This document shows, piece by piece, positions 6,109 to 23,621 of a stretch of 32,000 bases of DNA. How positions within the stretch are numbered: the stretch's first letter is position 1; each line of letters begins with the position of its first letter. Below the pieces are notes generated by a model. The model worked only from the letters and a program-made list of their open reading frames with translations, was not told the origin of the DNA and searched no databases. Origin of the DNA: Labilithrix sp. (GTDB lineage: Bacteria > Myxococcota_A > Polyangia > Polyangiales > Polyangiaceae); NCBI GenBank assembly GCA_019637175.1, contig JAHBWD010000035.1, positions 5,341 to 37,340 of the forward strand. The letters are read 5' to 3'. A program made the position numbers and the translations under genes.

Positions 6109-6996
6109 TCAGTCGGACGACGAATTCATCGCCGCGCCGACGATGATGACGATGAGCCCCGCGATGAGGAAGGTACCGCCCGCCGTGAGGATGAACGCGC
6201 CGGCGATGTTGCCGCCGCCGGTGACGGCGCCGCCCACGAGGCCGAGCACCGCGCCGACGCCGAGGAGGATCGCCCCGACGCGAACGACCTTCGTGCCGCT
6301 CCGCTCCTTGACCACCGGCTGCTTCGACGTGTCGGCGGCCTCGAGATCCTCGAGCACACGTCGGTACTGCCGCTCCGCGATGTTGCGGATCGTCGCCGAC
6401 TGCTCGTCGACGAACGTCGTCATCGGCTGCGCGCGGAGGCGCCACGACGTCTGCTGCACGATCGACTGGAGATGCATCCGCCGCTCGATCGAGATGCCGA
6501 TCTGCGCGGCGCGCGCGTCGAGCGCGTGGCCGACCGCGTCGCCGAGCTCGGGCTGCGCGCGGAGGCGCGTCTGGATCGCGGCGCGCCGCTCCGGCCCGAG
6601 CGCGTCGAAGTGCGCTTGCACGCCGCGGACCGCGTCGTCCATCTCGTCGGCGCCGCGCGCGATGCGGCCGATCATCTCGGGGTGCGCCTTTCCCTCCGGC
6701 GAGAGATCGCCGTACGAGCCGACGAGGAGGAGCGAACGCAGCGACTTGCGCACGAGCGCCTCGTCTCGCTGGAGCTCCGCCGCCGTGAGCGACGTGTCGC
6801 CGAGCTTCAGGTGATCGAGGACGTGACGCATCGGGTTGCCTTGCTCGATGCGCACCATGCCGTTGTCGAGGCGCGCGAAGAACGCGTCCATGTCCGCCGG
6901 CGAAGCGAGCCCCGGCATCGCGATCGGCGGGCTCCGATCGCACGCCCCCACGGTCGCCCCCGCGACGCCGAGCCTCAAGAAATCGCGTCGATCCAT
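6109..6996 (-). CDS. Tat-signal hypothetical protein with C-terminal Gly-rich membrane anchor
   Basis: MDRRDFLRLGVAG twin-arginine motif. Two C-terminal hydrophobic segments (VGAILLGVGAVLGLVGG / FLIAGLIVIIVGAA). Confidence 0.7.
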   Translation of the reverse strand: MDRRDFLRLGVAGATVGACDRSPPIAMPGLASPADMDAFFARLDNGMVRIEQGNPMRHVLDHLKLGDTSLTAAELQRDEALVRKSLRSLLLVGSYGDLSPEGKAHPEMIGRIARGADEMDDAVRGVQAHFDALGPERRAAIQTRLRAQPELGDAVGHALDARAAQIGISIERRMHLQSIVQQTSWRLRAQPMTTFVDEQSATIRNIAERQYRRVLEDLEAADTSKQPVVKERSGTKVVRVGAILLGVGAVLGLVGGAVTGGGNIAGAFILTAGGTFLIAGLIVIIVGAAMNSSSD

Positions 6997-7023
6997 CGAC
7001 CGCGAGCGTACACGATCGCGACC

Positions 7024-8385
7024 CTAACGAAGCGCCTCGTTGGCCGCGTCGCGGCCGGAGCGGAGGACCGTCGAGAAGCCCGCGCCCGGCTGCACCCACG
7101 CCCCGGCCATCCAGAGGCCGTCGAACGGCGTCGCGTGAGGGAGGTGACGCGCGCCGCTCTGCGCGATCATGGCGCGCGCGCCGTAGATGCTGCCGCCGGG
7201 GTTGCCGGTGAAGCGCGCGAAGGTGCTCGGCGTCGCCACCTCGCGGAGCACGACGCGATCGCGCAGCGTCGGCAGCGCGCGCTCGGCCTCCGCGACGAGC
7301 GCGTCGGCGTCGGCACGCGTCACGGAGCGCGAAGTCTCGACGAGCTTCGTGATCGCGATCACCGGCGGCCCGCCCGTGAGCACGTGGGGCATCGTGATCG
7401 AGAGCGCCTCGCCTCGCTCGTCGACGCGATAGAGATCGTAGTCGCGCCACGCTTCGTCGGCCGACGAGAGCCCGAGCCAAACCTTGAGGCACGAGACCGA
7501 TCCGCGCAGGCGATCGATCTTGGCGCTCCATCGAACGTCGCGATCGTCGAGGAGATCGATCGTCGCCTGCGGGCTCGCGTTGCTGACGACGAGCCGCGTC
7601 GCGACGCGCTCGCCGCTCTCGAAGGTCACGCCGCTCACGCGCCTTCGCTCGACGTGGATGCGACGAGCTCCGGTCGACACGCGGAGCGCTCCGCCGGCGC
7701 GCGTGACGATCGACGCGAGCGCGTCGACGATCGCGGGGCTCCCGCCGCGCGGATACGACCCACCGTAACGATGATACGAGCACCAGGGCACGAGAAACGA
7801 GATCGCCCCCAGCGCCTCGAGCGAGAGCCCGAGCCACCCGTGCGCGAAGAGCGAGAGCGTCGCGCGCAGCGCCGGATCGCGGACTTGAGCGTCGACGACG
7901 CGCGCCGCCGAGCTCCTCGCGAGCGGGCCGAGCGGATCGAGCACCTCCCCTCCCCCCGCGTGATACGCGCCGGCGACCTCGCTCGCGATCGCGAAGAGGC
8001 GCGCGAGGCCCTCACGCTCGGTGGGGAAGTGGCTCGCGAGCGCGTCGAGGTACGCATCGCGTCCGTGGGGCACGACGATCTCTCGATCGGGCCAGATCTC
8101 GCGACGAAGGGCCGCGGGGCGCAGCCACTCGATCGCGCGATCGATCCCGAGATCGACGAGGAGCGCGTGGTTCGGCTCTCCTTCGTGCATCGCATCGACG
8201 AGGTGCAGCGCGACCTCGAGCTCGAAGCGATCGCGCACGAACGTCGACGCGTATCCGCCGAGGCGATCGTGTCGCTCCGCGACGAGCACGCGCATGCCCG
8301 CGCGCGAGAGGCGCGCCGCGGCCGCGAGGCCGCCGAGCCCTCCGCCCACGACGACCGCGTCGTAGCGATCGCTCACGTCGCTCAT
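7024..8385 (-). CDS. NAD(P)/FAD-dependent oxidoreductase (phytoene-desaturase / amine-oxidase-like)
   Basis: YDAVVVGGGLGGLAAAARL dinucleotide-binding fold at the N-terminus. An alternative GTG start at 8394 would overlap the upstream stop as GTGA. Confidence 0.8.
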   Translation of the reverse strand: MSDVSDRYDAVVVGGGLGGLAAAARLSRAGMRVLVAERHDRLGGYASTFVRDRFELEVALHLVDAMHEGEPNHALLVDLGIDRAIEWLRPAALRREIWPDREIVVPHGRDAYLDALASHFPTEREGLARLFAIASEVAGAYHAGGGEVLDPLGPLARSSAARVVDAQVRDPALRATLSLFAHGWLGLSLEALGAISFLVPWCSYHRYGGSYPRGGSPAIVDALASIVTRAGGALRVSTGARRIHVERRRVSGVTFESGERVATRLVVSNASPQATIDLLDDRDVRWSAKIDRLRGSVSCLKVWLGLSSADEAWRDYDLYRVDERGEALSITMPHVLTGGPPVIAITKLVETSRSVTRADADALVAEAERALPTLRDRVVLREVATPSTFARFTGNPGGSIYGARAMIAQSGARHLPHATPFDGLWMAGAWVQPGAGFSTVLRSGRDAANEALR

Positions 8386-14053: not shown

Positions 14054-14438
14054 TTGAATGCCGCTCCCGTCTGGAGCGTCGAAGAGCAGCAACCAGAACC
14101 TCCAGGAGGCCGCGGAAAGCCCGCGGTGACTGCCCCGTGATCCTCTCCCTTCAACGAACCTGTACGGAATCGCGAGCGCTGACGCGCTTGGCCGGTCTCC
14201 GTGCGGGCTTCGTGGGGCGAGGTCTTCGGCAGGCCTCGCTCCCGTGGCATCGGGCGTATCGCTCGCGCCTCGTCTCCGTCCCCGTCTTCGGCGGCAGCTC
14301 CGGTTTCATCACGAAGCCTGGGCGCCGCATGTCCACCCTCACCTCGATCTCGCTCGATCCGAGCGCGAATGCAGAGCAGGAGGGATCCCCCTAGCGGTCC
14401 TCGTACCATCTCCTTCACAGGGAGCAGGTGTCGAAAGG

Positions 14439-14757: not shown

Positions 14758-14831
14758 GGGACGCTAGCTCAATCGGAACGAGCACCGGGCTTTTACCCCG
14801 AGGGATGAGGGTTCGACTCCCTCGCGTCCCA
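14758..14831 (+). tRNA. tRNA-Lys(TTT)
   Basis: Acceptor gggacgc/gcgtccc. D stem gctc/gagc. Anticodon loop ctTTTac. T-loop ttcgact. No encoded CCA. Confidence 0.8.
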
Positions 14832-14887
14832 CAGCCTCCGTCCGTCTTCTCTCTCTCGTTCACGCGCTCTCACGAGCGCGCGATCGC

Positions 14888-14961
14888 GGGTCCGTAGCGC
14901 AACCGGCAAGCGCACTCGACTCTTAATCGAGGTGGTGAGGGTTCGAGTCCCTCCGGACCTA
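14888..14961 (+). tRNA. tRNA-Lys(CTT)
   Basis: Acceptor gggtccg/cggacct. Anticodon stem ctcga/tcgag, loop ctCTTaa. T-loop ttcgagt. Confidence 0.8.
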
Positions 14962-14984
14962 CGGGCGACGTCCGTCGCCGACAC

Positions 14985-15059
14985 TCCGGGATCGTCTAGC
15001 TGGCAGGACACTGGCCTCTGAACCCAGAAACACAGGTTCGAATCCTGTGCCCGGAACCA
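14985..15059 (+). tRNA. tRNA-Gln(CTG)
   Basis: Acceptor tccggga/gcccgga (7-66 mismatch). Loop ctCTGaa. T-loop ttcgaat. CCA encoded. Confidence 0.65.
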
Positions 15060-15163
15060 AGGCTCTCCTCTTTCGAGGGAGCCCTCGCTCTCTGAAAACT
15101 TGGCGCCAATCGACTCGTCCGCGCGCGCGGAGCGCGAGCTTCACGCTCGCGGGCGAGTCTCAT

Positions 15164-15236
15164 TCCAGCGAAGCCGAATGGTCAGGCAGCCGGCTGTTAA
15201 CCGGTCCCTTCGAAGGTTCGATTCCTTCCGCTGGAG
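15164..15236 (+). tRNA. tRNA-Asn(GTT)
   Basis: Acceptor tccagcg/cgctgga. Anticodon stem gccgg/ccggt, loop ctGTTaa. T-loop ttcgatt. Confidence 0.75.
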
Positions 15237-15239
15237 CTC

Positions 15240-15371
15240 TCGCCCTCTCGGCAGAGGCCCTACACGCACCTGGTGATGCTGGTTCGACTCCAGCCCACGG
15301 CTTCGGCCGCGGTCGTCCAACGGCAGGACCCCCGAATGTCAATCGGAACGACGGCTTCTCCACTCGGGCGA
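15240..15371 (+). ncRNA. structured module A: permuted tRNA-like RNA (candidate Y RNA)
   Basis: Closing stem tcgccc/gggcga. Box ccctacacgca at 15258-15268. The order is then: T-arm gctgg-ttcgact-ccagc; acceptor 3' strand ccacggc; ttcg loop; acceptor 5' strand gccgcgg; D-arm gtcc/ggac; hairpin with loop atGTCaa. Confidence 0.5.
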
Positions 15372-15376
15372 AAACT

Positions 15377-15447
15377 GCCCATGTAACTCGATGGTCGAGC
15401 ACCCGCCTCGTACGCGGTGTGAGCCGGTTCGACTCCGGACGTGGGCT
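15377..15447 (+). tRNA. tRNA-Thr(CGT)
   Basis: Acceptor gcccatg/cgtgggc. Loop ctCGTac. T-loop ttcgact. Confidence 0.7.
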
Positions 15448-15452
15448 CTCGT

Positions 15453-15618
15453 TTCATCCACCCGAACAGACCCTACACGCAAAAACAAAGTTGGTTCGAC
15501 TCCAACCGCCTACCCCGACGGCCCTGCAAGGCCGTCTCGCATCACGGTGGGCGTAGCCTAACGGTAAGGCAATCGTTTATTGGACGATAATCCCACCCGG
15601 TTTGCTCACTCGGATGGA
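15453..15618 (+). ncRNA. structured module B: permuted tRNA-like RNA (candidate Y RNA)
   Basis: Closing stem ttcatcc/ggatgga. Box ccctacacgca. T-arm gttgg-ttcgact-ccaac. An 8-bp acceptor-like stem cgcctacc/ggtgggcg is capped by a 31-nt insert containing its own hairpin. D-arm gcc/ggc. Hairpin atcgt-ttattgg-acgat. Confidence 0.5.
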
Positions 15619-15796
15619 ACGCATCCTCTCCCCGCCGCGTACGGCGGGTCCCCTTTCAATCCGGCCGCTATAACGTTGCGCCTCGCGCGCAGCCCCGCCG
15701 TCGGATCCTGCCCCGCCGCGAGCTTCGTCGGCGCGGGTCTCGTCTCATCAGGAGGCTGGCGCGTGAGCGCAAGCCGCGCCGCCTCCGACCTCTTCC

Positions 15797-15868
15797 GCCC
15801 ACGCAGCTCGAGAGCCGAGCGTCCTGGCTTGTACCCAGGAAGATCTGGTGCGACTCCAGACGTGGGCT
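15797..15868 (+). tRNA. tRNA-Thr(TGT), non-canonical elbow
   Basis: Acceptor gcccacg/cgtgggc. Anticodon stem cctgg/ccagg, loop ctTGTac. T-loop tgcgact (G55). D-loop gagagcc lacks GG. Confidence 0.6.
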
Positions 15869-15883
15869 CCGCCGAAATCCTCT

Positions 15884-15958
15884 ACCCCCGTCATCTAGCG
15901 GCAAGGAGCTCCGTCTTTCAATCGGAGGGCGTCGGTTCGAATCCGATCGGGGGTGCCA
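15884..15958 (+). tRNA. tRNA-Glu(TTC)
   Basis: Acceptor acccccg/cgggggt. Loop ctTTCaa. T-loop ttcgaat. CCA encoded. Weak D stem. Confidence 0.7.
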
Positions 15959-16034
15959 GGGCTGTGAGCTGGTCGCAGGATAGCGTCTGCCTGAAGAGCA
16001 GAAGAACGTGGTGCAAGCCCACGACAGCCCACCA
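15959..16034 (+). tRNA. tRNA-Phe(GAA)
   Basis: Starts directly after the preceding CCA. Acceptor gggctgt/acagccc. Anticodon stem tctgc/gcaga, loop ctGAAga. T-loop tgcaagc (G55). CCA encoded. Confidence 0.7.
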
Positions 16035-16116
16035 TCGAAAGCTCGATATCGTCGATATCGAAGAACGACGAACATCGCACTTGCAAAGTGAGGTAGCGAG
16101 ACACATATGAATGTAC

Positions 16117-16189
16117 GGTGGCGTTACTCGTCTAGTGACGAGGACTGGCCGTGACCCAGTGGAGGCGGGTGCAATCCCCGTACGTCACC
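16117..16189 (+). tRNA. tRNA-His(GTG) with G-1, C33 and G55
   Basis: G-1 lies opposite C73. Acceptor gtggcgt/acgtcac. Anticodon stem actgg/ccagt, loop ccGTGac. T-loop tgcaatc. D-loop tctagtga. Confidence 0.7.
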
Positions 16190-16326
16190 CCTCAGCCGCC
16201 GAGCTTCGTTCGGCGACTTCGTCCCTCTCTCGTGGGAGCTTCGCTCCCCTCATCGGCGAAGCCGATGAGCCTCCTCTCCTTCGCCTGCGGCGAAACCGAG
16301 CTTCGCTCGGCAGGAGAGGCATCCAG

Positions 16327-16398
16327 GTCCTCGTGGCCGAGCGGATAGGCAGCGGTTTCCTAAACCGCCACAGGCAGGTTCGAGTCCTGCCGGGGACG
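16327..16398 (+). tRNA. tRNA-Arg(CCT)
   Basis: Acceptor gtcctcg/cggggac. Anticodon stem gcggt/accgc, loop ttCCTaa. T-loop ttcgagt. Confidence 0.75.
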
Positions 16399-16423
16399 CG
16401 ACACGCAACGAAACGATTCTCAC

Positions 16424-16495
16424 GCCTCGTGATGCGCCCGGCGGCGCAACCCCACTGTCTATGGGACGAGACGGGTTCGACTCCCGTACGAGGCG
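16424..16495 (+). tRNA. tRNA-Asp(GTC)
   Basis: Acceptor gcctcgt/acgaggc. D stem tgcg/cgca. Loop ctGTCta. T-loop ttcgact. Confidence 0.75.
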
Positions 16496-16501
16496 CTGCA
16501 T

Positions 16502-16575
16502 GCGTCGCAGAGTCATGGTGACCGGCCGAGCCTCCAAAACTCGGAGAGAGGGTTCGATTCCTTCGCGACGTGCCA
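16502..16575 (+). tRNA. tRNA-Trp(CCA)
   Basis: Acceptor gcgtcgc/gcgacgt. Loop ctCCAaa with a 31-39 C-A mismatch. T-loop ttcgatt. CCA encoded. Poor D-arm. Confidence 0.65.
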
Positions 16576-16588
16576 GAGGTGACCGTTC

Positions 16589-16792
16589 ATGACGACCTGC
16601 ACCTTCTGCTCGGGCCCCGCGCATCCCTCCACGGGCTGCGTGTACGGACCGAGAACCCTCGCGTGCCGCGCGTGCACCGTCCGCTTCTGGACGTGGCTCC
16701 GCCAGCACGTGAACAAGGCTCCTCGCCGCCGCCCTGGCCGCGTGGTCCCTTCCCTCACGTTCTACGAGGCCGCCACGAAGTGGCGAGCCTAG
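16589..16792 (+). CDS. small Cys-rich (zinc-ribbon-like) hypothetical protein
   Basis: 67 aa. CxxC...C...CxxC pattern (CTFC, C17, CRAC). GAGGTG Shine-Dalgarno-like sequence about 8 nt upstream of the ATG. Sits between tRNA-Trp and tRNA-Ala. Confidence 0.55.
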   Translation: MTTCTFCSGPAHPSTGCVYGPRTLACRACTVRFWTWLRQHVNKAPRRRPGRVVPSLTFYEAATKWRA

Positions 16793-16816
16793 GCCGACGG
16801 ACCTCCGCGGCCATCT

Positions 16817-16890
16817 GGGGCGGTATTTCAATAGGAGAATTCTGCTCTCGCACAGCAGGGATCGGGGTGCAATTCCCCGTCGCTCCACCA
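16817..16890 (+). tRNA. tRNA-Ala(CGC)
   Basis: Acceptor ggggcgg/tcgctcc with G3-U70. Anticodon stem ctgct/agcag, loop ctCGCac. T-loop tgcaatt (G55). CCA encoded. Confidence 0.7.
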
Positions 16891-16902
16891 GACATCACGA
16901 AT

Positions 16903-16975
16903 GGGGTCGTAGCTCAGCCAGGAGAGCATCTCGATGGCATCGAGAAGGTTGCCGGTGCAATTCCGGTCGACTCCA
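16903..16975 (+). tRNA. tRNA-Ala(GGC)
   Basis: Acceptor ggggtcg/cgactcc with G3-U70. Anticodon stem tctcg/cgaga, loop atGGCat. T-loop tgcaatt (G55). Confidence 0.75.
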
Positions 16976-17003
16976 CGAAGTACATATTCACGAATACCCA
17001 TAC

Positions 17004-17078
17004 GCTGGCATCGTCCAAGAGTGAGGACCTCAGTCTTCCAAACTGATGATGAGGGTGCGAATCCCTCTGCCCGCTCCA
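17004..17078 (+). tRNA. tRNA-Gly(TCC)
   Basis: Acceptor gctggca/tgcccgc (3-70 mismatch). D stem gtcc/ggac with loop aagagtga. Loop ctTCCaa. T-loop tgcgaat (G55). U73 and CCA present. Confidence 0.7.
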
Positions 17079-17231
17079 CTCTCCTCTTCCCCTGCTCTTC
17101 TGGCCCCGGCGCGCTCCGCGCGACGGTTCGCCGAAGGCGAAAGGGGGGAGGACTCCACGCGCAGCGTGGAGGGGGGACGCAGTCCCCCACGAGACAGAAG
17201 GAAACGAGAGCGCGCAGCGCTCTCGCTTTTC

Positions 17232-17302
17232 GAGCCGATTCTCTGAGAGGTCCGTGGTCTGCAAAACCGCGTATGAGGGTTTGATTCCCTCTCGGCTCTC
17301 CA
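17232..17302 (+). tRNA. tRNA-Cys(GCA)
   Basis: Acceptor gagccga/tcggctc. Anticodon stem gtggt/accgc, loop ctGCAaa. T-loop tttgatt (U56). U73 and CCA present. Weak D-arm. Confidence 0.65.
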
Positions 17303-17322
17303 AAAAGGAAATCATGACGAGC

Positions 17323-17395
17323 GGATCACGACGGGATGGTTACCCTGGGCTCTCTGATAAGGAGCCTGCACCGTGTTCGATTCACGGGTGATCCA
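17323..17395 (+). tRNA. tRNA-Ile(GAT)
   Basis: Acceptor ggatcac/gtgatcc. D stem cggg/cctg. Loop ctGATaa. T-loop ttcgatt. Confidence 0.8.
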
Positions 17396-17415
17396 CGACG
17401 AGCTCCACGAGAGAT

Positions 17416-17488
17416 GCGGCGCTGGCGGTCTAGTGACTGCGCTTGCTCGACAAGCAGGAACAGGCGGGTGCGATCCCCGCGCGCCGTA
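17416..17488 (+). tRNA. tRNA-Val(GAC) with C33 and G55
   Basis: Acceptor gcggcgc/gcgccgt. D stem gcgg/ctgc with loop tctagtga. Anticodon stem cttgc/gcagg, loop tcGACaa. T-loop tgcgatc. Confidence 0.65.
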
Positions 17489-17495
17489 CCGAGAG

Positions 17496-17567
17496 CTGGG
17501 CATAGTTCAGAGGCCAGATCACTCCCCTCGGAAGGGAGAGACGGAGGTTCGAGTCCTCCTGCCCAGA
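17496..17567 (+). tRNA. tRNA-Pro(CGG)
   Basis: C1-G72 acceptor ctgggca/tgcccag. Anticodon stem ctccc/gggag, loop ctCGGaa. T-loop ttcgagt. A73. Confidence 0.8.
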
Positions 17568-17577
17568 CTGATTTCAC

Positions 17578-17650
17578 GCCGATGTAGCCCAATAGGCAGA
17601 GGTACCCGTCTCAGAAACGGGGGGTGAGGGTTCGAATCCCTCCTTCGGCA
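17578..17650 (+). tRNA. class-I (short variable loop) tRNA with Leu anticodon CAG
   Basis: Acceptor gccgatg/cttcggc (6-67 mismatch). D-arm gcccaataggcagagg. Anticodon stem cccgt/acggg, loop ctCAGaa. Only 4-5 nt variable region. T-loop ttcgaat. A73. Confidence 0.55.
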
Positions 17651-17666
17651 CTACGTCTCTCGAAAT

Positions 17667-17750
17667 GTCACCGTGGTGGAACGGCATACACACCAGCTTG
17701 AGGTGCTGGGCTCCCTACGGAGTGTGAGGGTTCGAATCCCTCCGGTGACA
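17667..17750 (+). tRNA. tRNA-Leu(GAG), class II
   Basis: Acceptor gtcaccg/cggtgac. Anticodon stem ccagc/gctgg, loop ttGAGgt. Long variable arm ctcc-ctac-ggag. T-loop ttcgaat. Confidence 0.8.
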
Positions 17751-17843
17751 CTACTGGCGCGCGCATCCCCGAAACGACTCTTCTCTGCTGATCCCGAACC
17801 TTGCTCCTCGAAGGAGATGAAAGTGAAAAAGCGAAGGTGACCC

Positions 17844-18377
17844 ATGCAAACGCTGATGCTGACCCCGTGGATGGCGCCGCACAAGATCATCTCGTGGCAA
17901 CGCGCCGTCGTTCTCGCGTACCTCGGCAAGGTCGAGGTCATCGAGACTTGGGACTGCGATCTCCGCGGCCCCAGCGTCTCGATGAAGGCGCCGTCCGTCG
18001 TGCGTCTCACGAAGGGGTCGGTCTCGACGAAGCAGTCGGTGCGCTTCTCGCGCATCAACGTCTTCACGCGTGACAAGTTCCGCTGCCAGTACTGCGGCGA
18101 GCGGAAGCCCATCAAGCAACTGAACTACGACCACGTGATCCCGCGCGTGCGCGGCGGAAAGACGGTCTGGGAGAACATCGTCACTTCCTGCTACGCGTGC
18201 AACGATCGCAAGGGGAGCCGCACTCCCGAGGAGGCCGGCATGAAGCTGCTCCGCAAGCCGCTCAAGCCGGACACCCTCCCCGTGGTGCCGCCGATCCGCC
18301 TCGACGAGGGTGACCTGCCCGAGCAATGGGAGCCGTACTGCGGCGACCTGGCTCGGCTGATGTCCCTCTCGGCGTGA
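17844..18377 (+). CDS. HNH endonuclease (small McrA-like family)
   Basis: 177 aa. CQYCG...YDHVIPRVRGGKTVWENIVTSCYACNDRK, an HNH/ββα-Me motif with two CxxC pairs. AAGGTGA Shine-Dalgarno upstream of the ATG. Confidence 0.85.
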   Translation: MQTLMLTPWMAPHKIISWQRAVVLAYLGKVEVIETWDCDLRGPSVSMKAPSVVRLTKGSVSTKQSVRFSRINVFTRDKFRCQYCGERKPIKQLNYDHVIPRVRGGKTVWENIVTSCYACNDRKGSRTPEEAGMKLLRKPLKPDTLPVVPPIRLDEGDLPEQWEPYCGDLARLMSLSA

Positions 18378-18460
18378 AAGCGCTGCGCCCGTCATCCGAC
18401 GTGCGCTCCCGCGTCCTGGCCCAAGACGAAATAAACTGGGCCTCCTATTCTTCAAACGAT

Positions 18461-18535
18461 CAGGGCGTAGCTTAGCCTGGCAAAAGCGTCAGTCTGGGGG
18501 ACTGAAGAGCGCAGGTTCGAATCCTGCCGTCCTGA
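18461..18535 (+). tRNA. tRNA-Pro(GGG)
   Basis: Acceptor cagggcg/cgtcctg. D stem gctt/aagc. Anticodon stem tcagt/actga, loop ctGGGgg. T-loop ttcgaat. Confidence 0.8.
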
Positions 18536-18548
18536 CTACGTCGATATC

Positions 18549-18631
18549 GGAAGGTACATCCGCGAGGCGCGGAGATCGCCTGGAACGCGATTCGCACCGC
18601 CAGGTGCGAGGTTCGAGTCCTCTGCCTTCCT
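18549..18631 (+). tRNA. tRNA-Ser(GGA), class II
   Basis: Acceptor ggaaggt/gccttcc. Anticodon stem atcgc/gcgat, loop ctGGAac. Variable arm cacc-gcca-ggtg. T-loop ttcgagt. Confidence 0.7.
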
Positions 18632-18656
18632 CTGCTCTCGACTGCATCCTCGAAAC

Positions 18657-18741
18657 GGAAGAGAAACTGGCTGGGAGCCAGGACTGCCTCGAAAGCAGTA
18701 CGCACCTTCACGGGTGTGGGGTTCGAGACCTCTCTCTTCCT
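18657..18741 (+). tRNA. tRNA-Ser(CGA), class II
   Basis: Acceptor ggaagag/ctcttcc. D stem ctgg/ccag. Anticodon stem actgc/gcagt, loop ctCGAaa. Long variable arm. T-loop ttcgaga. Confidence 0.7.
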
Positions 18742-18758
18742 CTCTCGCCTCTCTTTTT

Positions 18759-18831
18759 CTCCTTGCTGGTGGCTCCAGGCATTGGTCTACGAAGCCGATT
18801 TTCCCAGGTTCGATTCCTGGCAGGGAGACCA
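18759..18831 (+). pseudogene. degenerate tRNA-like element (anticodon arm not foldable)
   Basis: Good acceptor ctccttg/cagggag, T-arm ccagg-ttcgatt-cctgg and CCA. The anticodon arm pairs poorly and the variable region is only 2-3 nt. Confidence 0.4.
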
Positions 18832-18838
18832 ACGATTT

Positions 18839-18973
18839 CGATCGCCCATCCCGAACGTGCCTACAAGCAACCGTCCTGAAAAGACGGGGAACACGAAACG
18901 TCCGAGCCCTCGAAGCGTCGAGCGCTCCGACGTTTCGTGATCCCTCCCAACGCACGATCGACTCGGGCGATCG
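18839..18973 (+). ncRNA. structured module C (box-containing, no T-arm)
   Basis: 9-bp closing stem cgatcgccc/gggcgatcg. atcccgaac plus box cctacaagcaa. Anticodon-arm-like hairpin ccgtc-ctgaaaa-gacgg. A 15-bp hairpin at 18892-18939. Confidence 0.45.
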
Positions 18974-18980
18974 CAAAAAT

Positions 18981-19053
18981 ACCTTCGTCCTGGCGGAATC
19001 CAGGCGCGAGCCTCCGAAGCTCGTTGCTCCCGGTTCGACTCCGGGCGGAGGTG
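18981..19053 (+). tRNA. tRNA-Arg(CCG)
   Basis: Acceptor accttcg/cggaggt. D stem ctgg/ccag with a 6-nt loop. Anticodon stem cgagc/gctcg, loop ctCCGaa. T-loop ttcgact. Confidence 0.7.
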
Positions 19054-19057
19054 CTGA

Positions 19058-19132
19058 CGCAGCGTGGGGGAGGAGCGACCCCGCGAGGTTCATGTCCTCG
19101 AGACGCCGGTGCGACTCCGGCCGCTGCTACCA
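19058..19132 (+). tRNA. tRNA-Met(CAT), 1-72 mismatch (initiator-like?)
   Basis: Acceptor cgcagcg/cgctgct with C1 opposite U72. D stem gggg/cccc. Anticodon stem cgagg/cctcg, loop ttCATgt. T-loop tgcgact (G55). CCA encoded. Confidence 0.65.
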
Positions 19133-19134
19133 AG

Positions 19135-19262
19135 GTCATCCAAATACGCCGAGCCTACACGCAACTTGATTCGTCCAATGGATAGGACATCAGCCTCCTA
19201 AGCTGAGCGTCTGGGTTCGAGTCCCAGATCAACCCCCCTCGCGCTCGTCGATCTCGGATGAC
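19135..19262 (+). ncRNA. structured module D: box plus normal-order tRNA-Arg(CCT)-like core (candidate Y RNA)
   Basis: Perfect 7-bp closing stem gtcatcc/ggatgac. Box cctacacgcaa abuts position 3 of a tRNA-like core at 19164-19235 (D stem gtcc/ggac, loop ctCCTaa, T-arm ctggg-ttcgagt-cccag). The core retains only 5 acceptor base pairs. Confidence 0.5.
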
Positions 19263-19270
19263 CTTCCTAT

Positions 19271-19347
19271 GTTTCCGTCGTCTAGACGGCCAAGGACACC
19301 CGCCTCTCAAGTGGGTAACACGGGTTCGAATCCCGTCGGAAACGCCA
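19271..19347 (+). tRNA. tRNA-Glu(CTC)
   Basis: Acceptor gtttccg/cggaaac. Anticodon stem cccgc/gtggg, loop ctCTCaa. T-loop ttcgaat. CCA encoded. Confidence 0.8.
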
Positions 19348-19392
19348 AACCCCAACATCCACGCCCACCACTGGCCCAGAAAGGAGAGAACC

Positions 19393-20982
19393 ATGGCAAA
19401 CAAGCAGCTATTCGCGAGCCCGCGACCGGACGCCGTCAACGAAGCCGGCGGCTTGGCCTACGCGTTCTCTCCCGAGCACGCGCTCGCCCAGTACGCCGCG
19501 ACCGGCACGTTCCACGGGACGTTCTACGCCAGCGACAAAGAGCAGCTCGATCGCGTGTCCGCGTTTGCCAGCGCGTGCTCGCCCGAGCTCGTCGCCAAGA
19601 CCGCCGTCTACTGTCGCGAGCGCGGCAGGATGAAGGACATGCCGGCGTTCCTCGTCGCCCACCTCGCGGCCCGCGACACCGCGATGATGAGCCGGGTGTT
19701 CGCTCGGGTCATCGACGACGGCGTCATGCTCCGCAACTTCGTGCAGATCGTCCGCTCGGGCGTCACCGGCCGAAAGTCGTTCGGCTCGGCCCCCAAGCGC
19801 GCGCTCCGTGCGTGGTTCGCGAGCCGCTCGCCCGACGCGATTTTTCGTCAGTCCATCGGTCAGAGCCCGTCCATGTCGGACGTCATCAAGATGGTTCGCC
19901 CTCCCCCGCGGAACGACAAGGGCGAAGCCGATGCCGTTCGTGAGGCCCTCTACGGCTACCTCATCGGAAAGAACGTGGATCCGGACAAGCTCCCCGCGCT
20001 CGCGCGCGCCTTCGAGGCGTGGAAGCGCAGGACCGGCGGCCTGCCCGACGTGCCCTTCGAGATGCTCACCTCGCTCCCCTTGAGCGCGGAAGACTGGAAG
20101 GCGCTCGCGCGTCGGATGACGACGAATCAGCTCCGGATCAACCTCAACACGCTCCTCCGTCACGGCGTCCTCGACGACCCCGAGATGGTGGACTCCGTGG
20201 CGGCCCGCCTGTCGGACCGCGAGGCGATCCTCCGGGCGCGCATGATGCCGTTCCAGCTCCTCGCCGCGTATCGCGGCGTCGAGGCGCGGATGCCGACGCG
20301 CATCGTCACGGCGATCGCGACGGCGCTCGAGCACGCGGTGTCGAACGTCCCCGAGCTCGTCGGGCGCGTCGTGCTCTGCCCCGACGTGTCGGGATCGATG
20401 CAGTCGCCCGTGACGGGTCACCGCGGGAGCGCGACCACGAAGGTGCGCTGCGTCGACGTCGCGGCCCTCGTGACCGCGGCGATCCTCCGGAAGAACCCGG
20501 GCTCGTCGGTCATTCCGTTCTCCGACGACGTGGTCCCGATGACGAAGCCTCTCGATCCGGGCGGCTCGATCGTCGAGAACGCGGAGATCCTCGCGAGCCT
20601 CCCGAGCGGCGGCACCGCTTGCTCGGCGCCGCTCCGCTGGCTCAACGCGAACGGGAACGCGCCCGACGTCGTCGTCTTCGTCTCGGACAACCAGTCGTGG
20701 TCGGACTTCCGACACCCTTCGCGATCCGCCACGAGCGGCACCGCGATGGCGGAGGAGTGGCAACGCCTTCGGGGCAGGAACCCGAACGCCAAGCTGATCC
20801 TCGTCGACGTCCAGCCCTACGGCACGACGCAGAGCACCTCGCGCGACGCCAAGGGCGAGCGCGACGACGTGCTCGACGTCGGCGGGTTCTCCGACGCGGT
20901 CTTCGACGTCGTCGCGTCGTTCACGCGCGGCGAGCTCGGCGGAGACACGTGGCTTCGCGCGATCGAATCGATCGCGCTCTAG
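19393..20982 (+). CDS. rsr: Ro60-related TROVE-domain / vWA protein (Rsr)
   Basis: 529 aa from MANKQLFAS. The N-terminus is TROVE-like (NEAGGLAYAFSPEHALAQYAATGTFHGTFY). C-terminal vWA MIDAS motif CPDVSGSM. AAGGAGAG Shine-Dalgarno at 19381-19388. Confidence 0.85.
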   Translation: MANKQLFASPRPDAVNEAGGLAYAFSPEHALAQYAATGTFHGTFYASDKEQLDRVSAFASACSPELVAKTAVYCRERGRMKDMPAFLVAHLAARDTAMMSRVFARVIDDGVMLRNFVQIVRSGVTGRKSFGSAPKRALRAWFASRSPDAIFRQSIGQSPSMSDVIKMVRPPPRNDKGEADAVREALYGYLIGKNVDPDKLPALARAFEAWKRRTGGLPDVPFEMLTSLPLSAEDWKALARRMTTNQLRINLNTLLRHGVLDDPEMVDSVAARLSDREAILRARMMPFQLLAAYRGVEARMPTRIVTAIATALEHAVSNVPELVGRVVLCPDVSGSMQSPVTGHRGSATTKVRCVDVAALVTAAILRKNPGSSVIPFSDDVVPMTKPLDPGGSIVENAEILASLPSGGTACSAPLRWLNANGNAPDVVVFVSDNQSWSDFRHPSRSATSGTAMAEEWQRLRGRNPNAKLILVDVQPYGTTQSTSRDAKGERDDVLDVGGFSDAVFDVVASFTRGELGGDTWLRAIESIAL

Positions 20983-21061
20983 CGATCGAGACAACGCGGC
21001 AAATGCCCGCGAGGGTTACATCCTCGGGAAAACCACCTTCGCGACCTTCGTTGCCGCCCTT

Positions 21062-21117
21062 GCTCCTCCTCACGAAAGGTCTTCACGGGAGCTCATTGAG
21101 GAGGAGCCATTCTTTTT
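21062..21117 (+). terminator. hairpin plus T-run downstream of rsr
   Basis: 11-bp stem gctcctcctca/tgaggaggagc with a 24-nt loop, followed by cattcttttt. The next tRNA starts 2 nt later. Confidence 0.6.
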
Positions 21118-21118
21118 C

Positions 21119-21191
21119 GCCGTCCACGCCCAGAGAGCGGGGCACCTCACTGGTAGCGAGGACAAGGAGGGTGCGAGTCCCTCGGACGGCT
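21119..21191 (+). tRNA. tRNA-Thr(GGT)
   Basis: Acceptor gccgtcc/ggacggc. D stem gccc/gggc with loop agagagcg. Loop ctGGTag. T-loop tgcgagt (G55). Confidence 0.7.
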
Positions 21192-21202
21192 CGAATCGTT
21201 TT

Positions 21203-21276
21203 GCGGTGATAGTTCAAGAGTAGAACCTGAGCACGCCACGCTCGAAATCCGGGTGCGATTCCCGGTCACCGCTCCA
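21203..21276 (+). tRNA. tRNA-Gly(GCC) with C33 and G55
   Basis: Acceptor gcggtga/tcaccgc. D stem gttc/gaac with loop aagagta. Anticodon stem tgagc/gctcg, loop acGCCac. T-loop tgcgatt. U73 and CCA present. Confidence 0.65.
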
Positions 21277-21339
21277 GCGCCGAGTCCCCTGCCGTTCACC
21301 GGAGAAGGTGTCGTCGGGGGGCCACGCGCTTCCACTCTT

Positions 21340-21412
21340 CGCTGCGCTCCTGGGCAGGACGACGGGCTTCATATGCCTGCGCGCGACGGCTCGACTCCGT
21401 CCGCAGCGACCA
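21340..21412 (+). tRNA. tRNA-Met/Ile2(CAT), aberrant D-arm
   Basis: Acceptor cgctgcg/cgcagcg. Anticodon stem cgggc/gcctg, loop ttCATat. T-loop ctcgact (C54). CCA encoded. The D region is only 14 nt. Confidence 0.55.
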
Positions 21413-21418
21413 CGACAT

Positions 21419-21490
21419 ACCGGAGTGTTCCAAGGGCAGGATCGGCGGCTTTGAACCGCTCGAGTGGGGGTTCGAATCCCTCCTCCGGTG
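21419..21490 (+). tRNA. tRNA-Gln(TTG)
   Basis: Acceptor accggag/ctccggt. Anticodon stem ggcgg/ccgct, loop ctTTGaa. T-loop ttcgaat. Confidence 0.75.
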
Positions 21491-21497
21491 CGAACGC

Positions 21498-21573
21498 GCG
21501 GGGCGCGCCGTCTGGCGACGGCATCTGCATCACAAGCAGCGCAAGGAGAGTTCGATCCTCTCGCCCCGTACCA
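21498..21573 (+). tRNA. tRNA-Val(CAC)
   Basis: Acceptor gcggggc/gccccgt. D stem gccg/cggc. Loop atCACaa. T-loop ttcgatc. CCA encoded. Confidence 0.75.
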
Positions 21574-21595
21574 CGAATGGAAGATTGGTCTTCGA

Positions 21596-21671
21596 GTCGA
21601 CGTAGCCCAACGGCAGAGGCAGCACGCTCAAACCGTGCGTGATGGGGGTTCGAATCCCTCGGTCGACACCA
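21596..21671 (+). tRNA. class-I (short variable loop) tRNA with Leu anticodon CAA
   Basis: Acceptor gtcgacg/ggtcgac (7-66 mismatch). D-arm gcccaacggcagaggc. Anticodon stem gcacg/cgtgc, loop ctCAAac. 5-nt variable loop. T-loop ttcgaat. A73 and CCA present. Confidence 0.55.
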
Positions 21672-21813
21672 TGGGTTCGAATCCCATGAAGCACCTCGCG
21701 AGGACGCCGGCGCGTCACGCGGAAGCCTCGAGCAGCGGCCTGTTACGCCGCACACGCTCGAGGGCCTTCTCCGCGCGACGTCCGCTCGTCGTTTCCGCAG
21801 CGAGATCCGCTTG

Positions 21814-21956
21814 CTGGTTGCCAGTCGCGCGACTGAAACTCGTGCACGTGTTTGACGCAGGTTCGAATCCTGTCGCCCGCACCGCTCGCTCGCGCGAGCC
21901 CTCCGAAATCATGCGGGCGTAGCTCAGCTAGGTAGAGCAACAGACTGTTAATCTGA
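21814..21956 (+). ncRNA. module E: third permuted tRNA-like locus
   Basis: The order is: hairpin cgcga-ctgaaac-tcgtg; T-arm gcagg-ttcgaat-cctgt; 3' strand cgcccgc; 32-nt cap; perfectly complementary 5' strand gcgggcg; D-arm gctc/gagc; hairpin acaga-ctgttaa-tctga. Confidence 0.4.
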
Positions 21957-22215
21957 AAACGAAGTCGGCGAAGGAAGTCACCCCCCTCTCGAGAGAGAGG
22001 CGCGCTCCCGTCCCGCGATCGAAGCCGCCCTGCCGCAGCTCCGCGGTCGTCCCTCGAAGACCACCGCGAAGCGCCGGCCGACGCCCCTCGATCGCTCGCC
22101 GGCGAGCACGTCGCCCGAACGTGATGGCTTCGAGGCGTTCACGTTCTTGGGTGCCTTCCTTCGAAGGCTCTCCTCCTTCTCTTCTCTTCTCATCTCCTCC
22201 AAGAGGCCACCCACC

Positions 22216-23352
22216 ATGATGAAGATTCTGTTCGTGGATCTCGACGAGCGCGTCGTGGTCCTCCGTCGTGGCCTCCCGGTTCGTGCCCTCGGACCTGGTC
22301 GCCACATCCTGTGGGGCTTCGGCATCACCGAGCGTCGGTGGTCGACCGCGCCCCTCGTGTTCGAGATGCAGCCCGCGCTCCGCGCCGCGCTGCCGCCCGA
22401 CTCTTTCCACGAGATCACGCTCACGCCGAGCGAGCGCGCGATCCTCTGGCGCGACGGCCGTCCCAAGGTCTTCCTCGGCCCCGGCGTCCACCGGTACTGG
22501 GAGGTCGACGACCCGCTCCACGCGCAGGTCATGTCGGTCCACGACGAGATGCCCGAGCTCTCCGCCGAGCTCGCGTCGATCATCCCGCGCGACCAGTACG
22601 TCGAGGTCACCGTGCAAGAGCACCAGCGCGGCCTCCTCCACGTGAAGGGCAAGCTCGCCCGGACGCTCGCGCCCGGTCGCTACACCTTCTGGTCGACGCG
22701 CGAGTCGCCCGTCGCCGTCCAGAGCGTCGACATGCGCGTCGTGCAAGCCACGATCGCGGGCCAGGAGCTCATGACCAAGGACAAGGTCACGCTCCGGCTC
22801 ACCCTCACGGTCGAGTACGCCGTCGAGGATCCGGCCGTCGCCACCCACGCGGTGGAGAACGTCCGCGACGCGATCTACCTGCTCGTCCAGCTCGCCAGCC
22901 GCGAGTTCGTCGCCGGCGTGACGCTCGACGACCTGCTCGCCGGCCGCGACGCGATGACGAAGTACCTCGAGGACGACGTCGCTGGAAAGGCGCGTCGCTT
23001 CGGCGTGCGCGTCGAGCGCGTCGGCGTGAAGGACGTCGTGCTCCCGGGCGAGATGAAGACGCTCCTCAACAAGGTCATCGAGGCCGAGAAGGAAGCGGCC
23101 GCGAACGTCATCCTCCGTCGTGAGGAGACGGCCGCGACGCGCTCTCTGGCGAACACCGCCAAGCTCATGGCCGAGCAGCCGCTGCTCCTGCGGCTGAAGG
23201 AGCTCGACTCGCTCAAGGAGATGGCGGCGAAGATCCACGAGATCAAGCTCGTGGCCTTCGCTCCGGGCATGAACGCGTCGGGCATGAACGCGCTCGTGCC
23301 CTCGGGCTTCCTCGGCCCTGGCCCGGAGGCCTCCTCCAAGGGAGAGGCGTGA
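22216..23352 (+). CDS. SPFH/band-7 (slipin-like) domain protein
   Basis: 378 aa from MMKILFVDL. Central SPFH pattern (TKDKVTLRLTLTVEY...GVRVERVGVKDVVLP) followed by a coiled-coil-like tail. AAGAGG lies upstream. Confidence 0.8.
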   Translation: MMKILFVDLDERVVVLRRGLPVRALGPGRHILWGFGITERRWSTAPLVFEMQPALRAALPPDSFHEITLTPSERAILWRDGRPKVFLGPGVHRYWEVDDPLHAQVMSVHDEMPELSAELASIIPRDQYVEVTVQEHQRGLLHVKGKLARTLAPGRYTFWSTRESPVAVQSVDMRVVQATIAGQELMTKDKVTLRLTLTVEYAVEDPAVATHAVENVRDAIYLLVQLASREFVAGVTLDDLLAGRDAMTKYLEDDVAGKARRFGVRVERVGVKDVVLPGEMKTLLNKVIEAEKEAAANVILRREETAATRSLANTAKLMAEQPLLLRLKELDSLKEMAAKIHEIKLVAFAPGMNASGMNALVPSGFLGPGPEASSKGEA

Positions 23353-23362
23353 CACGTGAACG

Positions 23363-23399
23363 GCCGGGATCTTCTGAAAAGAAAATCCCGGCGTTCTTT
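23363..23399 (+). terminator. hairpin plus T-rich tail after the SPFH gene
   Basis: gccgggat...atcccggc stem followed by gttcttt. Confidence 0.55.
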
Positions 23400-23533
23400 G
23401 GAAGTCAGACCGCAGAGGTTGCGGGCCCGGTTGCTACCCGGTGCGTACCCGAGTCGTTCGGGTATGGCGTTCGAGTCGCCTGATTTCCGCTCGATTTCGA
23501 CGTTCGGCGCCAAGTCTTCGGAGACGCTCGACT

Positions 23534-23621
23534 GGATCGGACGCGGTACTGGCTGGCCGCACGTGGCTGTAACCCACGTTCTTTCACGACACTGGGGGTT
23601 CGAATCCCTCCCGATCCACCA
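23534..23621 (+). tRNA. tRNA-Tyr(GTA), class II
   Basis: Acceptor ggatcgg/ccgatcc. D stem gcgg/ccgc. Anticodon stem cgtgg/ccacg, loop ctGTAac. Long variable region. T-loop ttcgaat. A73 and CCA present. Confidence 0.85.

Follow-up and report, generated by a model that had tools for sequence, protein, structure and literature searches.

Bacterial Y RNAs and the Labilithrix locus

Y RNAs of the YrlA class are defined by genomic position and by architecture. They lie on the same strand as rsr, the gene encoding the bacterial Ro60 orthologue, at a distance of 4 kb or less, and carry GNCGAAN0-1G near the 5′ end. YUAY opens the variable region, which continues with T, acceptor-like and D stem-loops in that order (Chen et al., 2014, PMC4201824). 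Here, five RNA modules (A to E) that resemble this class to differing degrees are described from a tRNA array around rsr in Labilithrix sp. (Myxococcota). The window, meaning the whole stretch of DNA that was analysed, is a 32,000-nucleotide chromosome segment of about 70% GC from a metagenome-assembled genome (MAG; NCBI GenBank assembly GCA_019637175.1, contig JAHBWD010000035.1, positions 5,341 to 37,340 of the forward strand). The rsr gene, whose product is the presumed protein partner of the modules, occupies 19384-20982 on the + strand. It lies downstream of modules C and D, as a first-pass annotation of the sequence had proposed, and its product has the expected Pfam domains (vWA_Ro60, 1e-18; TROVE, 4.5e-6). 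The protein is 100% identical to the NCBI entry 'TROVE domain-containing protein [Labilithrix sp.]', a MAG protein.

Several described Y RNAs bear on this locus. A species can have several, one tRNA-like and one hairpin-like. Deinococcus radiodurans makes a polycistronic Yrn2-tRNAAsp-Yrn1 precursor, and an anticodon arm is possible in Yrn1. Mycobacterium smegmatis YrlA is cleaved by RNase P and undergoes CCA completion (all PMC4201824). It has also been said of YrlA that it 'lacks the anticodon loop', and an origin from dimeric tRNA transcripts has been cited (Wang et al., 2018, 10.1101/312249).

Modules A to D are not a product of chance. They are members of a conserved family of structured-RNA genes that numbers at least 25 copies, located in rsr/tRNA-array islands of Labilithrix and Polyangia MAGs and in a few viral contigs. 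The evidence for this is given first. The reading favoured here is that A to D, together with E, are paralogous small RNAs of the Y RNA kind, derived from the array and bound by Rsr. We put the probability of this at roughly 0.6.

A handle shared by modules A to D

Modules A (15240-15371), B (15450-15621), C (18839-18973) and D (19132-19265) are all on the + strand. The first-pass annotation had described a 5′ element, a box and a 3′ element common to them, and pairing between their extreme ends. All of these elements are present where it placed them and the ends pair as it described, with longer helices in B and D (10 bp). Overlooked were a second helix (H2), the closed anticodon-like arm of A and B, and module E.

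The common order is a terminal helix (H1), an internal loop, H2, the single-stranded box CUACA(C/A)GCA, a variable interior (the cargo), the second strand of H2, ACUC and the second strand of H1. The parts outside the cargo are referred to below as the handle. H1 closes with invariant C-G/C-G pairs, and the internal loop is about 4x4 nt, with RYYC on the 5′ side and ACUC on the 3′ side. H2 has 8-9 positions, including a 1x1 mismatch or bulge, and stands immediately 5′ of the box. Its sequence is different in each copy, yet the pairing is always kept (AGAGGCC/GGCUUCU in A, CAGACC/GGUUUG in B, CGUGC/GCACG in C and CGAGC/GCUCG in D). In module A, H1 is formed by 15240-15245/15366-15371 and H2 by 15250-15259/15353-15361, with the loop UCUC/ACUC between them and the box at 15260-15268. 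The corresponding parts are 15450-15459/15612-15621, 15464-15472/15599-15607 and 15473-15481 in B, 18839-18847/18965-18973, 18852-18860/18952-18960 and 18861-18869 in C (where the box is CUACAAGCA), and 19132-19141/19256-19265, 19147-19154/19243-19250 and 19155-19163 in D.

The box stands out by itself. As CCTACANGCA it occurs exactly four times, always on the + strand in the array (at 15259, 15472, 18860 and 19154), and with up to one mismatch it has eight matches against 1.44 expected, a number reached in 0 of 100 shuffles. Taken singly, the 5′ motif ATCCCGAAC and the 3′ motif CACTCGG are unremarkable. Exact ATCCCGAAC is limited to module C and 17764-17799, and its 16 matches with up to one mismatch, against 8.9 expected, are not significant. 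The sequences at 17764-17799, upstream of the HNH gene, are CAUCCCCGAAAC and GAUCCCGAAC. They had been listed as partial copies and they do resemble the 5′ elements of the handle, but a matching 3′ partner is missing and the motif alone is not significant.

Conservation of the handle was examined in loci collected around Rsr homologues (L numbers below), of which 80 come from species-representative genomes, 77 from metagenomes and 9 from viruses. Copies were gathered under a rule that demands pairing, so the paired percentages and covariation figures carry an ascertainment bias. With that proviso, and with the cargo replaced by GAAA, 93.1% of handle cells are paired across 23 copies, against 30-43% in slid registers. 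Both sides are changed in 13 of 16 handle pairs. Compensatory cells number 88, compared with 30.2 +/- 4.0 after shuffling, and none of 500 shuffles gave as many. A further 20 cells hold G-U pairs compatible with the + strand alone. The closing stem with compensatory changes that had been suggested from the four window copies is therefore borne out by homologues.

Because of the bias, covariance models were built without window sequences, R1 from 9 normal-order copies and R2 from 10 permuted copies (the terms refer to the cargo, described below). R1 finds module D over its full length (103.8 bits, E 3e-23) and C through the handle (41.9 bits). R2 finds B (122.2 bits, E 9e-25 at 15453-15618), A (96.1 bits, E 3e-19), E by its cargo only (43.2 bits), C (37.7 bits) and D (29.2 bits). 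Given the 9 normal-order copies from outside the window, RNAalifold arrived by its own prediction at H1, H2 and the D, anticodon-like and T arms, with compensatory changes in 22 of 30 pairs. As far as the window is concerned, these three results escape the bias.

Copies of a small mobile repeat, akin to a miniature inverted-repeat transposable element (MITE) with H1 as its terminal inverted repeat, might be expected to look somewhat similar. There are several copies per locus with inverted termini, and the island has a lower GC content than its flanks and an HNH gene inside. However, H1 and H2 diverge between copies and stay complementary, which signals selection on RNA pairing rather than on repeat identity. 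The G-U pairs make the structure strand-specific and all copies are on one strand. Copies also occupy syntenic slots between the same tRNAs across genomes, and no identical copies with target-site duplications were seen at non-syntenic sites. A mobile repeat is thus extremely improbable.

Not every search was informative. RNAduplex, applied to the 30 nt before box-like motifs against the 600 nt after them, was useless because spurious duplexes outscored true ones in 70% GC DNA. Pairing of spacer ends between tRNAs called by ARAGORN was too noisy. A descriptor scan lacking the 3′ CTCGG anchor did not set the plus strand apart from the minus strand and shuffles (206, 159 and 200 matches). The anchored version was usable, with true copies chosen by eye out of a background of about 55.

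Variable cargo

The interiors agree with what was first described, being permuted in A and B, of normal order and Arg(CCT)-like in D, and made of hairpins in C. In A and B the order is T arm, acceptor hairpin, D arm and then the closed anticodon-like arm, a 4-5-bp stem with a 7-nt loop that starts one nucleotide past the D arm. Module A has its T arm at 15278-15294, the acceptor hairpin at 15295-15312, the D arm at 15315-15329 and the anticodon-like arm at 15331-15347 (loop AUGUCAA). In module B the T arm (15490-15506) is followed by the 3′ acceptor strand (15507-15513) and CCCG, then by the 5′ acceptor strand (15547-15553), the D arm (15556-15570) and the anticodon-like arm (15572-15588, loop UUAUUGG). 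An ARAGORN 'tRNA-Asn(att)' at 15546-15638 was rejected as a false call made up of the 5′ acceptor strand, D arm and anticodon-like arm of B plus downstream sequence.

The cargo of module D consists of a 5-bp acceptor-like helix (19166-19170/19228-19232), a D arm (19173-19188), an anticodon-like arm (19190-19206, loop CUCCUAA) and a T arm (19211-19227). ARAGORN calls it Arg(cct) at 19164-19237, and the Rfam tRNA model matches with 47.3 bits, limited to model positions 3-68. Module C contains a small hairpin (18871-18887) and then a long one reaching to about 18945; orthologues of C are present in L003 (9325-9472) and L146 (1571-1714).

The family as a whole pairs this handle with permuted cloverleaves, normal-order tRNA-like cargo with a 0-5-bp acceptor, hairpins only, a hairpin plus T arm, or no cargo at all. 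Locus L001 is instructive, as it is the closest relative covering the slots of A and B (Rsr 81% identical). Its module-A slot (203-253) holds a bare handle with no cargo, and its module-B slot (387-492) a truncated module. Therefore, cargo has been gained or lost while the handle stays.

The permuted cargo covaries as well. Over 11 copies, its cells are 94.3% paired and compensatory changes are seen at 15 of 21 pairs, among them 6 of the 7 acceptor pairs and 4 of the 5 that form the anticodon-like arm. The anticodon-like loops keep U33 in 11/11 copies and a purine at position 37 in 10/11, while the 'anticodon' itself varies (GUC, AUU, CGU, AUG, ACG, UUC, GUU). The first nucleotide of the 5′ acceptor strand is always G, and G1-C72 is invariant. 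In 9 of the 10 permuted copies whose acceptor loop is long, the 3′ acceptor strand runs on into N-C-C (such as ACCA, ACCG or CCCG). Instances lie at 15507-15517 and 21874-21884 in the window and in the permuted modules of L003, L004, L011 and L161. At the position of D, orthologues read CCU, GUC, CUA, a 6-nt loop or a tetraloop.

Could A, B and E simply be permuted (split) tRNA genes and D an ordinary tRNA gene whose leader and trailer are long and paired? The handle would then be an open 'variable arm' or a processing stalk on a tRNA that decodes. The presence of all four arms with tRNA spacing and covariation agrees with this, as do the features of the 7-nt loops, the invariant G1-C72, the N-C-C after the acceptor and the identification of D as a tRNA by both ARAGORN and Rfam. 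Decoding is nevertheless highly improbable because orthologues do not keep the anticodon, acceptors are short (5 bp in D, 0-5 bp in its orthologues) or closed into a hairpin (A, B and E), and an identical type of handle bears hairpin-only cargo (C) or none (L001 203-253). Unusual A34 anticodons (AUU, AUG) are present, and ordinary tRNAs called by ARAGORN in the array already cover Asp-GUC, Asn-GUU and Arg-CCU.

Permuted tRNA genes of the red alga Cyanidioschyzon merolae offer a comparison. There the 3′ half is encoded upstream of the 5′ half and an intervening sequence joins the acceptor strands; a bulge-helix-bulge, splicing endonuclease and circularisation are needed, and the products decode. 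The modules share the 3′-half-first order and the intervening sequence between acceptor strands. However, they have no bulge-helix-bulge (the handle has a roughly 4x4 loop and a 1x1 mismatch, not two 3-nt bulges 4 bp apart), their anticodons are not conserved, and their junction lies in the variable region, where a long conserved stem closes it. A bacterial circularisation route is not known.

Variation in the cargo also bears on the idea that the closing stems serve a polycistronic transcript as processing stalks of the RNase III type and that the cargoes are functionless, decaying tRNA remnants. Long terminal helices around tRNA-like sequence in a tRNA operon, the loss of cargo in the two L001 slots and the abundance of hairpins in other spacers would all be expected. 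What such stalks do not explain is the invariant single-stranded CUACA(C/A)GCA box and ACUC loop across distinct cargoes, or conservation between a bacterium of 65% GC and a viral contig of roughly 50% GC. In addition, the cargo helices covary themselves. This possibility is very unlikely.

Relation to canonical YrlA

Module E (21829-21971, + strand), downstream of rsr, is the member most like canonical YrlA. It is the best match within the window to the Rfam YrlA model (RF02553), at 41.8 bits (E 1e-6), which is below the gathering score of 69 bits. Its 5′ end is GCGACUGAA, with GCGACUG at the place of GNCGAAN0-1G, and its closing helix is CGACU/AGUCG (21830-21834/21963-21967). The T arm (21857-21873) is followed by acceptor strands at 21874-21880 and 21913-21919 with a 32-nt insert beginning ACCG between them. 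Next come a D arm identical to the YrlA consensus (21922-21938) and a closed anticodon-like arm (21940-21956, loop CUGUUAA). Orthologues of E are found in L001 (6467-6627) and L083 (2949-3107). A degenerate tRNA 3′ part lies downstream of E, and the Rfam tRNA model spans 21913-22017 with a 40-nt insertion. Such an arrangement would be expected of a tRNA dimer that has decayed.

Related loci contain canonical YrlAs. One in L007, immediately 3′ of rsr, scores 74.2 bits, above the gathering score, and a pattern search located about 20 more. The 5′ strand of their stem reads H1 (GNCGA), loop AUGC, H2 (..GGRAC) and then UACAU, with CUACAU at the junction in these copies; the 3′ strand reads H2′, loop ACC(C)YUG and H1′ (UCGNC). 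The handle of modules A to D shares the plan of this stem. An internal loop separates the terminal helix from the second one, (C)UACA comes next, and CUYG marks the 3′ boundary of loop and H1. YUAY has its counterpart in the CUAC directly after the stem in A to D, and CUAC is present in 19 of 23 family members as well. Modules A, B and E have the YrlA order of T arm, closed acceptor-like hairpin, UA and D arm, together with a tRNA T-loop and the GG of the D-loop, and the length of the acceptor hairpin varies in both groups. The suggestion that the modules are Y RNAs of the YrlA type is thus supported in part, by the strand and position relative to rsr, the covarying two-helix terminal stem, the T-acceptor-D order of A and B, and YUAY.

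Other observations weigh against the favoured reading. None of the modules attains the gathering score of the Rfam YrlA model. Searched by itself, module A gives a weak full-length match (25.1 bits, E 0.001); for B, C and D there is no YrlA match at E <= 10. Conversely, R2 at E <= 1e-5 misses the canonical YrlAs of L007, L008, L009, L013, L015, L033, L040 and L117. The handle reads CC|RYYC ... ACUC|GG, compared with GNCGA|AUGC ... ACCCUUG|UCGNC in canonical YrlA, and GNCGAAN0-1G, the presumed Ro60 contact, is absent from the canonical H1/loop junction in A to D. Something like it, with the first G changed to C, is seen in B (CCCGAACAG) and C (CCCGAACG), inside the loop and H2 rather than at the H1/loop junction; in this CCCGAAC the CGAA is about 5 nt nearer to CUAC than in canonical YrlA. 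Module A has CUCGGCAG and D has nothing similar. Finally, YrlA is said to lack an anticodon loop, whereas A, B and E each form a closed anticodon-like arm (4-5-bp stem, 7-nt loop).

The cargo also departs from YrlA in detail. The order of arms is normal in D, and a tRNA-like part is missing from C. The handle of A, B and E exits at the position of the variable loop, whereas the YrlA stem continues the anticodon stem. The near-invariant YrlA T and D stems (GCGGG...CCCGC; GUAGCUCA..GGUAGAGC) are not matched by A and B, whose T stems are GCUGG or GUUGG and whose D stems are GUCC or GCCU. The window locus is further distinguished by having 4-5 copies and by placing the handle on non-permuted or non-tRNA cargo as well. 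A helix CCGA/UCGG, which would imitate the register of the canonical H1, was considered as an alternative and rejected, as it is formable in 80% of cells with zero compensatory changes. The sub-threshold YrlA scores and the failure of either model to recognise the other's RNAs suggest that the modules are a divergent YrlA/Y RNA variant outside the Rfam family.

Other Y RNAs provide partial parallels. D. radiodurans has several upstream of rsr, and Yrn1 can be drawn with an anticodon-like arm (PMC4201824). Yrn2, tRNA-Asp and Yrn1 are co-transcribed, so tRNA processing sets the ends of the Y RNAs, and this is a likeness to the modules. On the other hand, Yrn1 has a 6-nt anticodon-like loop and an incomplete D arm, there is one interleaved tRNA compared with about 30 here, and no sequence similarity was detected between Yrn1 or Yrn2 and the modules. 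M. smegmatis YrlA owes its cleavage by RNase P to a 7-bp acceptor stem, and CCA completion takes place on its 5′ half (PMC4201824). The permuted modules of the window resemble it in their 7-bp G1-C72 acceptors followed by N-C-C, but differ in handle sequence. M. smegmatis YrlB has only a T arm, as do the mini-modules L082 1247-1335 and L085 3880-3977. Module C is like YrlB and Yrn2-type hairpin Y RNAs, the second type reported from every species studied, in having a terminal stem and a long hairpin with no tRNA-like part, and unlike them in sharing handle and box with tRNA-like modules. The Rfam YrlB model does not match C, and its sole match in the window (20992-21062) is at chance level (E = 10).

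A motif at 14365, upstream of the array, GCGAATGC, resembles the YrlA 5′ end. It was set aside as expected by chance, and its fold is unremarkable (z = -1.5).

Distribution of the family and linkage to rsr

Synteny of the array and rsr extends across MAGs of Labilithrix, Polyangiaceae and Myxococcales, and takes in the whole array in L001, L003, L004 and L011. Anchored scanning and inspection uncovered at least 23 further handle modules, in L001, L003, L004/L136, L011, L082-L085, L088, L132, L146 and L149. Copies of the D type lie 240-400 nt upstream of rsr, and Rsr at these loci is 53-100% identical to that of the window. Orthologues of D stand immediately upstream of rsr in L003, L082, L085, L087, L088, L132, L146, L149 and L090. 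In the window itself, all modules share the strand of rsr. D is 0.1 kb and C 0.4-0.5 kb upstream, E is 0.85 kb downstream, and B (3.8 kb upstream) and A (4.0-4.1 kb upstream) are borderline for the YrlA limit of about 4 kb; A to D thus lie upstream by 0.1-4.1 kb.

A pattern scan of viral contigs returned mostly coincidences in coding sequence and was real only for L161, L203, L247, L253 and L271. Contigs L161, L247, L253 and L271 add handle modules, all within tRNA arrays. In L271 at least four box/handle modules stand in a row on the - strand (6240-7917), with the box (C)UACA(A/U)GCAU. Nearby are a gene for a 497-aa vWA protein and ThiF, JAB and SLOG-like genes. The possibility that the 497-aa protein is a divergent Ro60 was dismissed, as it gained no support from Pfam, PHROGs, PDB sequences or hhalign against an Rsr alignment.

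Two aspects of the distribution count against Rsr as the partner. tblastn found no rsr in the 9-15 kb around the modules of the viral arrays L161, L247 and L271. In addition, box/handle modules were not found in viral and bacterial rsr loci outside the Labilithrix clade, among them the viral rsr loci L279-L287 and the phage Mx1 region (L158). Taken together, these would point to a partner other than Rsr, although we regard that conclusion as doubtful. The box/handle RNAs would then be a separate class belonging to tRNA arrays, with a tRNA-processing, repair or phage/host-conflict factor as partner, and E would be the only true Y RNA.

Such a class would account for a handle sequence unlike the canonical Rsr-binding stem, for canonical and variant models that are blind to each other, for viral modules (at least four copies in L271) with no rsr in the flanks examined, and for a canonical-like YrlA already being in the window as E. 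However, D-type modules are tightly linked to rsr over Rsr identities of 53-100%, and both the architecture and the YUAY junction motif agree with YrlA. The flanks examined are also 9-15 kb of far larger viral contigs (137 kb in the case of L161), so that rsr may lie elsewhere on them. Moreover, several Y RNAs per Ro60 are the rule (PMC4201824). A separate class with a non-Rsr partner is therefore unlikely, and the reading of A to E as Rsr-bound RNAs of the Y RNA kind is preferred.

Six or more tRNA genes lie within 10 kb of rsr in 56 of 157 loci (L001-L157), with up to 33 tRNAs, and these tRNA-rich loci span Myxococcota, Acidobacteriota, Verrucomicrobiota and others. One region of Myxococcus phage Mx1 (L158) combines tRNAs, TROVE, HNH and peptidyl-tRNA hydrolase genes. 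The tRNA arrays described in 2021 (PMC8421152) and the Mx1 tRNA cluster resemble the window array in having about 30 supernumerary tRNAs on one strand and an HNH endonuclease gene. The tRNA-array paper differs in that Ro60 and Y RNAs go unmentioned (PMC8421152).

Setting of the modules in the array

The array extends from 14758 to 23621 on the + strand, as delimited by ARAGORN, the Rfam tRNA model and Pfam, and has a GC content of 61-65% compared with about 70% in its flanks. It contains 31 tRNAs by ARAGORN and additional Rfam tRNA matches, also on the + strand, and CCA is not encoded in these tRNAs. Besides rsr, it includes an HNH endonuclease gene (17844-18377, + strand) and an SPFH gene (22147-23352, + strand). 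Upstream are the housekeeping neighbours ChlI/YifB, GCV_T and ketoacyl synthase; downstream are M18 peptidase, FIST and a Ser/Thr kinase. The modules fill spacers between tRNAs. A gap of 0-7 nt separates A, B, C and D from the end of the upstream tRNA, and the downstream tRNA begins 5-7 nt past A, C and D.

Scans with sigma-70, terminator and sigma-54 consensus patterns gave nothing above chance. Just 3′ of the rsr stop, 20983-21120 holds a long hairpin and then a GC-rich hairpin with UUCUUUUU after it. The latter resembles an intrinsic terminator and would divide the array into two transcription units. A Cys-rich 67-aa open reading frame (CxxC ... C ... CxxC; 16589-16792, + strand) within the array has no Pfam match. 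The long spacers 15060-15163, 15622-15796, 16190-16326 and 17079-17231 are dense in short GC-rich hairpins, and many of these have loops of the GCUUCG type, as in CCGAGCUUCGCUCGG and GGGAGCUUCGCUCCC. In the other long spacers of the window, GC hairpins alone were seen, with no additional handle.

Proposed processing and function

The modules may be transcribed as part of the tRNA-array/rsr transcript. Since tRNAs abut the modules, release by tRNA processing is plausible: RNase P and 3′ tRNA-processing enzymes would cut out the neighbouring tRNAs, and the freed 5′ and 3′ ends of each module would then pair as H1. The permuted cargoes with a 7-bp G1-C72 acceptor and N-C-C are probably themselves cleaved by RNase P and given CCA. 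The N-C-C and invariant G1, in an array whose tRNAs have no encoded CCA, suggest processing of the kind described for M. smegmatis YrlA. The product would be a two-piece RNA joined by acceptor stem and handle, again as for M. smegmatis YrlA.

The handle (H1, ACUC loop, H2 and CUACA(C/A)GCA) would be a protein-recognition module, most likely for the Rsr encoded next to it, with the invariant loop and box elements as the likely contact surface. The grounds for naming Rsr are genomic linkage and architecture. The variable cargo would be the effector side, perhaps recruiting a tRNA-binding partner as is thought for YrlA.

A bolder version of this idea is that the handle is a portable tag, for Rsr or another factor, that displays interchangeable tRNA-shaped cargo. 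The permuted modules, once cleaved by RNase P and completed with CCA, would be two-piece, CCA-ended whole cloverleaves with real anticodon loops, and their anticodons diversify between genomes. In phage-host conflict such RNAs might serve as tethered tRNA decoys or as sensors, directed at anticodon nucleases or at enzymes that modify or repair tRNA, and mobile or phage-like tRNA arrays would be a fitting place for this role. On this view the modules would also be present-day intermediates in the derivation of YrlA from dimeric tRNA transcripts. We think it quite unlikely that the modules work in this way.

Significance

Experimental work on bacterial Y RNAs has covered few species, and the family described here is not covered by any Rfam model at threshold. 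The locus provides a natural series of 4-5 paralogues that would combine one recognition stem with differing cargo, and could therefore be used to dissect the Ro60-binding part of a Y RNA from the effector-recruiting part. Y RNAs that lie among real tRNA genes and still possess an anticodon arm would be the intermediate predicted by the 'dimeric tRNA transcript' model of YrlA origin (cited in 10.1101/312249). RNA biologists should find the modular design of handle plus cargo, the kept anticodon arm and the connection of Ro60 with tRNA arrays of interest. More broadly, the modules may link the biology of Ro60 and Y RNAs to the horizontally moving tRNA arrays of bacteria and phages, a connection that goes unmentioned in the tRNA-array literature consulted (PMC8421152).

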